Shown here in pieces: positions 9,001 through 12,000 of a stretch of 14,298 nt of DNA. Origin of the DNA: a virus (Duplodnaviria; Heunggongvirae; Uroviricota; Caudoviricetes); the IMG/VR virus record IMGVR_UViG_2529293045_000016; one strand, written 5' to 3'. Position numbers: made by a program. Every line of letters starts with the position of its first letter. The stretch's first letter is position 1.

Positions 9001-12000
9001 GTTAACCTGTCCGGGGATATCGGCGAGTCGTGCAGGTGTGTTTATTATGAAGACGAAATTATATGGCAGTAAGGCGTGGATAAAGAAGGCGTATCGTGTA
9101 GCGTTGCAGGAGGTTAACAGTGAGTGAAATTAAAGAAATGCCGGTAGTTCGTGACGGATATGGCTACTGGACACATCCTGAATATGAAAAATTCTGTGAT
9201 GGTCGGGAATATATTTCAACGGAAGAGTTTAACGCCTGGATGGAGGAAAATAATCTTCAATACGTCCTCTGCTTCAGAGATGAAGGATGTGCTGACCTTG
9301 ATGCGTGTGATGCTGATATTTCTGCATGGGAACCGGAACGACCAGAGGGCGATGGCTGGTTTATTGGTTCCATTCATGATACGGAAGATGGCCCGGTTTG
9401 TGTCTGGTTGCGAAATAAGGCTGAAGCATAAAGGCGATAAACCAACTAACAACTAAATACTGAAGATTTAAATCAGAAACGATTTTTATTAAATCCTTAA
9501 CCGGAGGGATTCCTGCACCCTCAGAACATCAGGAGGCCGCCCGAAAGGGCGGTAAGAAATGAAACATTATTTAGAAAAAAATTACCCACGAAAGAGCAGA
9601 ACAACAGAGTTTCTGTTTTTCATTCTGTTTATAGTGTTGATGATACCGATATCCCCGCTATTACTGGTCTGGATAATTGGAAGGACATTTGAACCAGTTA
9701 TTGAGCTATATACCGATGTGACATGGGAATCATTCAGCGCACTGCACAATAAAATTAATCCGTATAAGGAAAACTGATATGAGCACTATTACCAGAGAAC
9801 GCGCGGAGATTAAATCATACATCACAGGCTTCCTGAGCGACTCGGCGCACGATAACAAGTCTTCAGACAGCCTGCTGGCTAATGTGTTTCGTATCGCGCT
9901 GGCATCACTGGAAGCAGAGCCGATAGCAATGGTAGTGCCTGATGAAATGGATTTGCTTACCTGCCATCTCGACGGTGTAACTAAAACATATGCTGATGGC
10001 TGGAACGCCTGCCGCGTCGCCATGCTTCAGGCCGGAAACTTTCGGGAAAATAAGAATTCGTCAACCAACAATTTTCGGGAAATCTCGGAAACGTCAACCA
10101 GATCTCCGATAACTCTGGATGGCTGGATAAGCTGTACTGAGCGAATGCCTGAAAAGAGCCAGAACGTGCTTATTTCGATGAATATCGATAGCGAGGCTGG
10201 GCCATTAATATATTCCGCACGCTATCTCGGAGGCACGTTCCGGCGCGGAGGTATAGCAGTTAGTCCGGGTAATGATCTTAGGCAAGCAACCCACTGGATG
10301 TCGCTACCAGAACCGCCGCAGGAGGTGAATCAATGACCTGGCCTGAAGCATTCACAACGGTAGGAATTGCGATGGCGGTGGCGCTGGTGGTGTATTCGAT
10401 TTGCCGCTGGGGATAAAAACGGTTTGCGGGAAAAGGATAGTTAAGTAGAATTGCTGCGGGTGCTTGAGGCTATCTGCCTCGGGCATGAACACCAACGGCA
10501 GATAGAGAAAAGCCCCAGTTAACATTACGCGTCCTGCAAGACGCTTAACATTAATCTGAGGCTCAATCCATGCTGAACACATGTAGGTTAGCCTCTTACG
10601 TGCCGAAAGGCAAGGAGAAGCAGGCTATGAAGCAGCAAAAGGCGATGTTAATCGCCCTGATCGTCATCTGTTTAACCGTCATAGTGACGGCACTGGTAAC
10701 GAGGAAAGACCTCTGCGAGGTGCGAATCCGAACCGGTCAGACGGAGGTCGCTGTCTTCGTAGACTACGAATCTGAGAAGTAAGAGACCAGGCGGGGGAGT
10801 AATCTCCCGCCACCTCTGATGTGTCAGGCATCCTCAACGCACCCGCGCTTTACCATACTGAAAATGCTGTTTGAATGTTCATCTCTGAAAGAGGACTATG
10901 AATGAAAAAGGTATTGATTGCAGCACTTATTTCCGGTGTGTCTTTTGGCGCTTTTGCACAGCAGGGTGGTTTCCAGGGGCCAGAAGCAGAGCGTTCAACA
11001 GTAGCGCAGGCAAAAGAACTGAAGGATGATGCATGGGTTATCCTTGAAGGGAGCATCGTTAAAAAAGTGGGTGATGAACGTTATGAGTTTCGTGACAATA
11101 GCGGGACAATTGTCACGGATATTGATGACAGCGTATGGGCCGGGCAGAATGTTTCTCCGAAAGACAAAGTAAGAATTGAGGGTGAAATTGATAAAGACCT
11201 GAGCAGTGTTGAAGTTGATGTAAAGGCACTGAAATTATTAAAGTAACCGCCCCTGCTTGTTAAGCCCGTCTTACTGACGGGTTTTCTGTTTGTACATTCC
11301 GGCGTATTGCCTTACAATTCGCGCAGTCAGCCTGAACAACTGACACCTGCTGTCACCGGAGAATCCGATGACACAACACATAAAATCCCACAATTCTGAA
11401 GCCGACCCGGAAATTAAGCAGGGGAGGCGTTTTCGTGCGCCTCAGTATGGCTGGTTTCACTATCTGTTCTGTACGATCGATGAGGCAGATATGCTTCAAG
11501 AGGCGTATCTGCGTCGCGGTGTCCGTGTGGAGCGGAGTCTGAACGCTGATCGTCTGACCTGGACCGTTTCTGTATATCTTCCTGTTCGTGCACATCTGCC
11601 ACGGACACATGCCTGCTACCGTCAGCGCGTCTGGAGGTAATGTGCGGGTATTACTTCGACCTGTTCTGGTTCCGGAACTCGGGCTGGTGGTCCTTAAGCC
11701 CGGTCGTGAATCATTGCCAGTTTTTCATCGCGGCAGGGTGCTGGTGGAGCCGGAACCGAAAAACATGCGGGCGCTGCCATCTGGAGCGGTTCCTGCTGTT
11801 CGCCAGCCGCTGGCGGAAGATAAATCACTGCTGCCATTTTTCAGCGATGAGCGGGTGATTCGTGCAGCTGGCGGCGCTGGTGCACTGTCTGACTGGTTAT
11901 TACGTCACGTGAAATCCTGCCAGTGGCCACACGGCGATTATCATCACAGCGAAACCGTTATTCACAGTTACGGTGCTGGCGCAATGGTGTTGTGCTGGCA

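Follow-up and report, generated by a model that had tools for sequence, protein, structure and literature searches.

The 14,298-nucleotide stretch of viral DNA analysed here (IMG/VR record IMGVR_UViG_2529293045_000016; called the window below, with positions counted from its first base) very probably carries at 10424-10854 a complete and apparently functional hok/mok/sok type I toxin-antitoxin cassette, which, judging from its sequence, is an allele of hokW-sokW lying in the Escherichia coli prophage Sp11. The cassette is already known: it is annotated in the Stx2 phage 933W, it was characterised experimentally in 2021, and it belongs to the best-studied family of type I toxin-antitoxin systems. 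A preliminary description of the window had recognised a HokD/RelF-like toxin gene in the nin region, away from relBE, and had left it undecided whether an antisense Sok RNA and fold-back elements in the messenger RNA (mRNA) accompany it. The features on which our reading is based are listed in Table 1.

The assignment of the toxin gene is supported by profile searches. Its 51-residue product covers the whole of the 42-position Pfam profile PF01848 (HOK_GEF) with 81.1 bits against a cut-off of 22, matches PHROG 251 ('MokW-like host killing'; E = 1e-32) and is 92% identical to HokD of E. coli K-12; the NCBIfam Hok models were also matched, below their strict cut-offs (53.6 vs 73). The protein thus has the small size (about 50 residues) and the hydrophobic character of the Hok/Gef toxins of the type I family. 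It can also be seen that a longer open reading frame (ORF) of 70 codons, mok, begins upstream of hok, overlaps it, and has a Shine-Dalgarno (SD) sequence of its own, GAGG, 8 nt before its start. To compare the cassette with its relatives we scanned one genome per species, which returned 47 Hok loci, and used MAFFT to align 26 complete cassettes, which come from Escherichia, Kluyvera, Photorhabdus, Pantoea and Citrobacter; conservation is given below for these 26. The mok ATG is kept in all of them; 20 have mok in the frame of hok, while in the other six it is read in a different frame or is short, which fits an ORF that is needed for translational coupling and whose product is not needed. As a separate observation, the Tyr47 codon of hok is UAC and the next base is G (10765-10768); UACG is a target context of TadA.

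We then compared the window with hokW-mokW-sokW of phage 933W and of the Sakai prophage Sp5 (AF125520). MokW and HokW are 100% identical to the products encoded here, and the DNA is 97.5% identical over 10330-10900, where 11 of the 14 base differences lie in a 27-residue ORF upstream of the cassette. Only three differences fall within 10420-10860 (at 10438, 10535 and 10790) and two within 10458-10844, and none affects a promoter hexamer, tac, ucb, an SD sequence, dcb or fbi; position 10535 is in the loop of the Sok hairpin, and the G at 10790 adds one base pair to the 3' hairpin relative to 933W. The sok promoter and the 5' end of Sok are the same in both, as are the neighbouring genes (a DUF551 gene, the 27-residue ORF and a YgiW-like OB-fold gene), and the 933W record annotates mokW, hokW and 'SokW antisense RNA' at the equivalent coordinates. 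The settings differ, however, in that the window cassette lies in Sp11, which is Qin-like and carries DicF and dicB, whereas 933W is an Stx2 phage.

The plus strand of the region has the fold expected of a hok mRNA. Rfam model RF01794 matched at 10458-10632 over its full length with 113.5 bits (gathering score 59; E = 1e-25), its first position falling on 10458. Counted from there, the transcribed leader of hok is about 169 nt; the 210-bp leader proposed previously corresponds exactly to the gap between the 27-residue ORF and hok (10417-10626), only part of which would be transcribed from this start. In the minimum free energy (MFE) structure of 10458-10845 (-162.6 kcal/mol, z = -8.26) the 5' end of the RNA pairs with the 3' end, such that the first 12 bases (tac) are taken up by fbi, and ucb is paired with the mok SD sequence. 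The tac/fbi duplex has an energy of -19.8 kcal/mol in the window, and all 26 cassettes form one of 11-14 bp with -17 to -24 kcal/mol, compared with -10.0 +/- 2.9 kcal/mol for shuffled 3' ends. These duplexes were computed for each sequence separately because the Photorhabdus fbi is shifted by one base in the MAFFT alignment. The preliminary description had confined the locus to 10420-10830, an interval that holds hok and its leader and ends just short of fbi (10832-10844), and the fold-back element was missed for that reason.

This long-range pairing is supported by compensatory changes. Pair 4/405 of the tac/fbi duplex is U-A in 17 cassettes, C-G in eight and U-G in one, and RNAalifold, run on the 26 cassettes, recovered the pairing of the two mRNA ends as well as the 3' hairpin; at 15 pairs both partners have changed and pairing is maintained. 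Three partners can be assigned to tac, namely fbi in the MFE structure, the segment at 10476-10486 in a metastable 5' hairpin, and ucb in the Rfam structure. For the metastable hairpin 96.9% of alignment cells are paired, and its pair 4/28 changes from U-A to C-G in eight sequences, in the same tac column that covaries with fbi; Gultyaev et al. are said to have described such coupled covariation of the tac column for the hok family in 1997. The ucb/mok-SD helix is paired in 81.9% of cells, and at two of its pairs both partners have changed. The tac/ucb stem belongs to the Rfam consensus structure; it is paired in 99.5% of cells and is almost invariant, with six unvarying pairs, and therefore gives no covariation signal. 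The Sok-target hairpin, which is the third hairpin of the RF01794 consensus and folds alone with -12.2 kcal/mol, has five invariant outer pairs and variable inner ones, seven pairs being changed on both sides. We also considered AGCCUCUUACGUGCC as ucb and rejected it, as this segment is dcb by the element definitions of PMC9841398 and in the Rfam structure.

Homology between the window and the other cassettes starts at 10439-10456 and stops at 10844-10854 across many different contexts, and we conclude that the cassette is a discrete module of about 415 bp. In the divergent cassettes a -10-like hexamer (TAGAAT, TATAAT, TACAAT or TATATT) stands in the same register before GGG(T/C)GC; in the window this is TAGAAT, 6 nt ahead of the presumed mRNA start. 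Several of the relatives have decayed. One (locus L007) has a scrambled 5' end in which GACTGCATGTGGC stands instead of GGGTGCTTGAGGC (tac); a K-12-type hokC copy (L015) has lost fbi; the Photorhabdus locus L040 has an unrelated leader; and in the Kluyvera locus L027 the stretch immediately before hok is very similar to the relE-hokD junction of K-12.

On the minus strand, a promoter and an RNA complementary to the mok initiation region can be read from the sequence, as predicted for a cis-antisense Sok. The stretch 10578-10506 (73 nt), which takes in the Sok RNA and two further bases, folds with -31.2 kcal/mol (z = -5.5) into a long, terminator-like hairpin with 9 single-stranded nucleotides at its 5' end and the 3' end GGGGCUUUU. 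Experimental evidence comes from the Sp5 copy, for which Takada et al. (2021) showed that HokW arrests growth, and all 12 of the Sp5 primers and probes that we tested match the window exactly. A fragment equivalent to 10327-10933 was harmless under arabinose-driven (PBAD) sense transcription while the sok promoter was intact; replacing the bases equivalent to 10584-10590, the sok -10 element, with primers YO-421/YO-422 abolished antitoxin activity; and a fragment equivalent to 10476-10630 partially restored growth in trans (PMC8621323). Northern probes corresponding to 10549-10578 (YO-592, sokW) and 10586-10615 detected sokW RNA and hokW mRNA, shorter hokW RNAs were reported, and there was partial dependence on RNase III and Hfq (PMC8621323). 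Upon RecA-dependent induction of Sp5 the sokW RNA was lost and HokW appeared in the inner membrane; with the locus present, growth stopped earlier and Sp5 release was about two-fold higher, deletion of hokW-sokW halving it (PMC8621323). The Sok question is thereby answered for the allele, since sokW is annotated at the equivalent place in 933W and has been shown experimentally in Sp5.

Table 1. Positions of the hok/mok/sok elements and of the flanking genes in the window.
Feature	Position	Strand	Remarks
DUF551 gene	9779-10336	plus	Pfam 72.5 bits
27-aa hydrophobic ORF MTWPEAFTTVGIAMAVALVVYSICRWG	10333-10416	plus	ORF list; start overlaps DUF551 stop codon (ATGA)
Putative hok promoter	10424-10451	plus	-35 TTGCGG 10424-10429, 16-bp spacer, -10 TAGAAT 10446-10451; by sequence reading
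Full-length hok mRNA, ~388 nt	10458-10845	plus	Rfam model position 1 at 10458; putative 3' end
tac (translational activator element) GGGUGCUUGAGG	10458-10469	plus	mRNA 5' end
Metastable tac partner	10476-10486	plus	MFE of leader and of truncated RNA
ucb (anti-Shine-Dalgarno for mok) AAGCCCC	10510-10516	plus	Pairs with mok SD (full-length RNA) and with tac (processed RNA)
Sok-target hairpin	10558-10595	plus	mok SD GAGGCU 10558-10563 pairs with dcb AGCCUC 10590-10595; encloses mok start codon
mok leader ORF, 70 aa	10570-10782	plus	ORF list; in frame with hok, same stop codon
Sok antisense RNA, ~71 nt	10578 to 10508	minus	AF125520 sokW misc_RNA maps to these coordinates
sok promoter	10613-10585	minus	-35 TTGCCT 10613-10608, 17-bp spacer, -10 TAACCT 10590-10585; by sequence reading
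hok toxin gene, 51 aa	10627-10782	plus	ATG start; SD AGGAG at 10613-10617
3' stem-loop GGCGGGGGA/UCUCCCGCC	10790-10811	plus	9 bp including one G-U, GUAA loop, -17.3 kcal/mol
fbi (fold-back inhibitory element) CCUCAACGCACCC	10832-10844	plus	Complementary to tac, one bulged C; 12 MFE pairs
YgiW-like OB-fold gene (BOF family)	10902-11246	plus	Pfam 115 bits; start 57 nt after fbi

Taken with the model from which our element definitions also come (PMC9841398), these features suggest how the cassette would work. A weak constitutive promoter would start transcription at 10458 and give a stable mRNA, about 388 nt long, in which tac would be held in the local hairpin during synthesis; in the finished molecule tac would pair with fbi and the mok SD sequence would be covered by ucb, so that the mRNA would neither be translated nor bind Sok. 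Slow trimming from the 3' end back to the hairpin at 10790-10811 would remove fbi, whereupon the leader would refold into the tac/ucb and mok-SD/dcb pairings, allowing translation of mok and, by coupling, of hok. As long as the cassette is transcribed, the unstable 71-nt Sok would pair with the refolded leader, block mok translation and mark the duplex for RNase III; once the supply of Sok stops, the 51-residue Hok would be made and would damage the inner membrane. For the Sp11 copy, the 3' processing, the refolding and the coupling of mok to hok are taken from the plasmid R1 model by analogy.

The same model gives a likely function to the 3' hairpin, which lies between the stop codon and fbi. 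The preliminary description had placed a bulged stem-loop lacking a U-tract here; we find the hairpin at that place, and indeed no U-tract, but its nine pairs are continuous and there is no bulge. It is paired in 97.2% of alignment cells, with two pairs changed on both sides, and by analogy with plasmid R1 it would stop exonucleases that enter from the 3' end and thereby set the point at which the processed, translatable mRNA ends.

Several observations count against a complete and functional cassette in Sp11. First, no recognisable intrinsic terminator follows fbi in either the window or 933W, whereas most relatives have a strong one 6-20 nt after fbi (for example, AACCCGCTTCGGCGGGTTTTT); we therefore only infer the 3' end of the hok mRNA. 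Second, a consensus promoter and terminator scan of 10200-11000 detected neither the hok nor the sok promoter and no terminator. The promoters were missed because their hexamers are weak (the hok -35 TTGCGG and the sok -10 TAACCT each agree with the consensus at 3/6 positions), and as the sok -10 element has been validated experimentally in Sp5 we do not accept the empty scan as proof of absence; a search for a minus-strand promoter therefore failed by consensus, and the promoter with TTGCCT and TAACCT was found by reading. Third, in the MFE structure of the 3'-truncated RNA the metastable 5' hairpin is kept and tac/ucb is absent, and forcing tac/ucb to form costs 5.4-6.0 kcal/mol, so that the proposed active conformer rests on the Rfam match and the invariant complementarity. 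Fourth, the RNA and toxicity data were obtained with the Sp5 copy, a protein-identical allele. Finally, the integrase and exonuclease genes of Sp11 are pseudogenised in Sakai, making it a defective prophage, and an induction-linked role may therefore not apply to the Sp11 copy.

This last point bears on the role of the cassette rather than on its mechanism. The cassette might serve mainly to stabilise the prophage as an addiction module, or to defend against other phages by abortive infection, instead of helping lysis upon induction, and we regard this as a serious possibility that is nevertheless the less probable one. The 933W record annotates 'prophage maintenance', hok/sok of R1 reportedly lowers the plating of T4, prophages show an enrichment of hok genes of about four-fold (10.1101/2025.08.07.668861), and the defective state of Sp11 argues against a role in its own release. 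However, the only direct test of the allele gave the earlier arrest and increased Sp5 release described above. Furthermore, Sakai has at least two copies, in Sp5 and Sp11, with a single loop base distinguishing their Sok RNAs, so that each could cover for loss of the other, which would weaken addiction, and hok is not enriched next to defence systems (10.1101/2025.08.07.668861), which speaks against defence.

A further potential explanation is that the locus is a silent remnant, looking intact and yet unexpressed or non-toxic, as are several chromosomal hok loci inactivated by truncation or insertion. Decayed copies do occur among the relatives (the K-12-type hokD retaining only 10613-10854, L007 with its scrambled tac and L015 lacking fbi), Sp11 is defective in Sakai, and a preprint (10.1101/2025.08.07.668861) relates that earlier authors found chromosomal hokA, hokB and hokC unable to mediate post-segregational killing. 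Against this, every regulatory element is present in the window, none of the three bases that differ from the active Sp5/933W allele falls in a functional motif (that at 10790 adding a hairpin pair), the protein is identical to the toxic HokW, and hundreds of genomes carry the sequence unchanged (100% identity). We consider a silent remnant very unlikely. Least credible of all is the view, given in the preliminary description as the outcome that would refute it, that hok is a passenger ORF, lacking antisense RNA and fold-back and simply co-transcribed with and silenced by the upstream nin genes: hok does share the orientation of all its neighbours, no terminator-like site lies on the plus strand between 7830 and 11262, which makes upstream read-through likely beside the cassette's own transcription, and the consensus scan found no promoter, but fold-back pairing exists and is backed by covariation, a sok promoter and its RNA have been demonstrated on identical sequence in Sp5, PBAD-driven transcription across the fragment is harmless only when the sok promoter is intact, and the cassette recurs as a discrete module in unrelated contexts.

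A complete hok/mok/sok cassette is thus by far the best account of the locus, and it also changes how its surroundings should be seen. The preliminary description had noted, correctly, that the toxin gene follows a DUF551 gene and a 27-residue ORF and not relB-relE, with the implication that this context is odd. A nucleotide BLAST search of the whole window with K-12 relB-relE-hokD gave matches only at 10613-10854 and 11630-12309, and none to relB or relE. In K-12, hokD (relF) of the Qin prophage lies in the same general prophage region, with a DUF968/ydfU-like gene downstream. Its toxin is identical to the Hok encoded here at 47 of 51 residues, and it has the hok SD sequence, the coding region, the 3' hairpin and fbi in common with the window (93.8% DNA identity over 10613-10854). 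There, however, relB (79 codons) and relE (95 codons) precede hokD, and homology to the window begins only at 10613, which is 14 nt ahead of the start codon. K-12 has relB-relE in place of the hok promoter, tac, ucb, the start of mok, the Sok target and sok. The relBE-hokD arrangement, in which hok lacks its own leader, mok and sok, is accordingly not that of the window, where the full leader is present. From the sequences, K-12 relBE-hokD is derived by truncation, and the complete, standard form is that of the window, so that the implied oddity lies with K-12. Our literature search turned up no text on truncation of hokD, and this conclusion therefore draws on our own comparison; a 1999 article by Pedersen and Gerdes (Mol Microbiol 32:1090) is said to agree that K-12 hokD is truncated.

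Two other systems provide useful comparisons. The hok/mok/sok (parB) locus of plasmid R1 has the same tac/fbi and ucb/mok-SD pairings, the tac/ucb and mok-SD/dcb pairings proposed here for the active conformer, the same metastable 5' hairpin, and a cis-antisense Sok with its promoter at dcb. It differs in that its Hok is only 44% identical, that it is plasmid-borne whereas the present cassette is in a prophage, and that it serves plasmid maintenance while phage release has been reported for hokW-sokW; in addition, no terminator is evident after fbi in the window. The mok of R1 is out of frame with hok, whereas in the window the two are in frame. The chromosomal hokC/mokC/sokC (gef) locus follows the same plan, with an in-frame 69-residue Mok beginning MQNTCRVPLTDRKVKEKRAMKQHK and with tac, ucb, dcb and fbi conserved, at 74-75% DNA identity and about 80% identity of Hok. 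It differs in having a second leader hairpin that is 18 nt shorter, a terminator directly after fbi, and a chromosomal site.

Over its full length the window matches E. coli O157:H7 strain Z887 with 100% identity. Its match in strain Sakai falls within the tandem lambda-like prophages Sp12/Sp11, the hok region being in Sp11. The gene order in Sakai runs from an exonuclease gene, a dicB-like gene, repressor and antirepressor genes and replication genes to small nin-type genes including DUF551, followed by the hok ORF, the YgiW-like OB-fold gene, a DUF968 gene, an endonuclease gene (labelled RusA in other RefSeq genomes) and a Q-type antiterminator gene, which places hok within the nin region of a lambdoid prophage. 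A full-length DicF small RNA (3198-3249, minus strand; Rfam RF00039, 75 bits) adjoins the dicB-like gene, which is annotated in Sakai as 'cell division inhibition protein', and on this basis we call the prophage Qin-like. Copies of IS1203/IS629 interrupt this part of the prophage at sites that vary among O157 strains (Sakai locus L050, 119-1428; L002, 8381-9594), and the break in the prophage of strain PV15-279 is about 1.4 kb upstream of hok.

Immediately upstream of the cassette, the 27-residue ORF has kept its length and frame relative to 933W despite 11 base and six residue changes; about 19% of bases differ in 10354-10411, compared with less than 1% in the adjoining hok cassette. This ORF had no Pfam, NCBIfam or PHROG match and is unannotated in every record that we examined.

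The cassette is widespread. With the 571 bases of 10330-10900 as query, all 25 E. coli records listed were 100% identical, 505 records matched at 99% identity or above, and 1,101 records had one place covering at least 80% of the query. Three further occurrences of the E. coli phage cassette, on very short contigs assigned to Acinetobacter idrijaensis (275 bp) and to Xanthomonas pisi (431 bp, with 96% identity to 10323-10753 of the window) and on a 3-kb contig of a metagenome bin (L014, L022 and L049), are most likely assembly contamination.

As the system is known, its identification in the window has little discovery value, but it has some practical value for annotation. The RefSeq pipeline PGAP calls only the short ORF ('Hok/Gef family protein'), with neither mok nor sok, and in Sakai the 70-codon mok ORF (ECs_2198) is annotated as 'regulatory protein MokC for HokC'. 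The Rfam model RF01794 is named 'sok antitoxin'; it matches the hok-coding strand, however, and as it stops at the hok AUG it models the leader of the hok mRNA and not the antisense Sok RNA. Pipelines that copy the match put the antitoxin on the wrong strand and with the wrong extent.

A further point concerns the absent terminator. The next terminator-like site on the plus strand after fbi is at 11262-11284, beyond the OB-fold gene, ahead of which there is no promoter-like site, and hok and the OB-fold gene may be co-transcribed. It is conceivable, if improbable, that a cassette lacking its terminator has been fused to this gene in the early-right transcription path, such that hok is co-transcribed with it, or that the sok promoter is shut off by read-through, or both. 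As a cause of Sok loss, upstream read-through is not favoured by the Sp5 data, in which Sok withstood sense transcription of that fragment from PBAD, and we therefore keep the idea only at low probability. Were co-transcription to occur, fbi would be internal and the 3' processing of hok mRNA would work differently; were read-through from the early promoter to silence the convergent sok promoter upon induction, this would explain the RecA-dependent loss of sokW RNA. Either would mean a type I toxin-antitoxin switch tied directly to the transcription programme of the phage.

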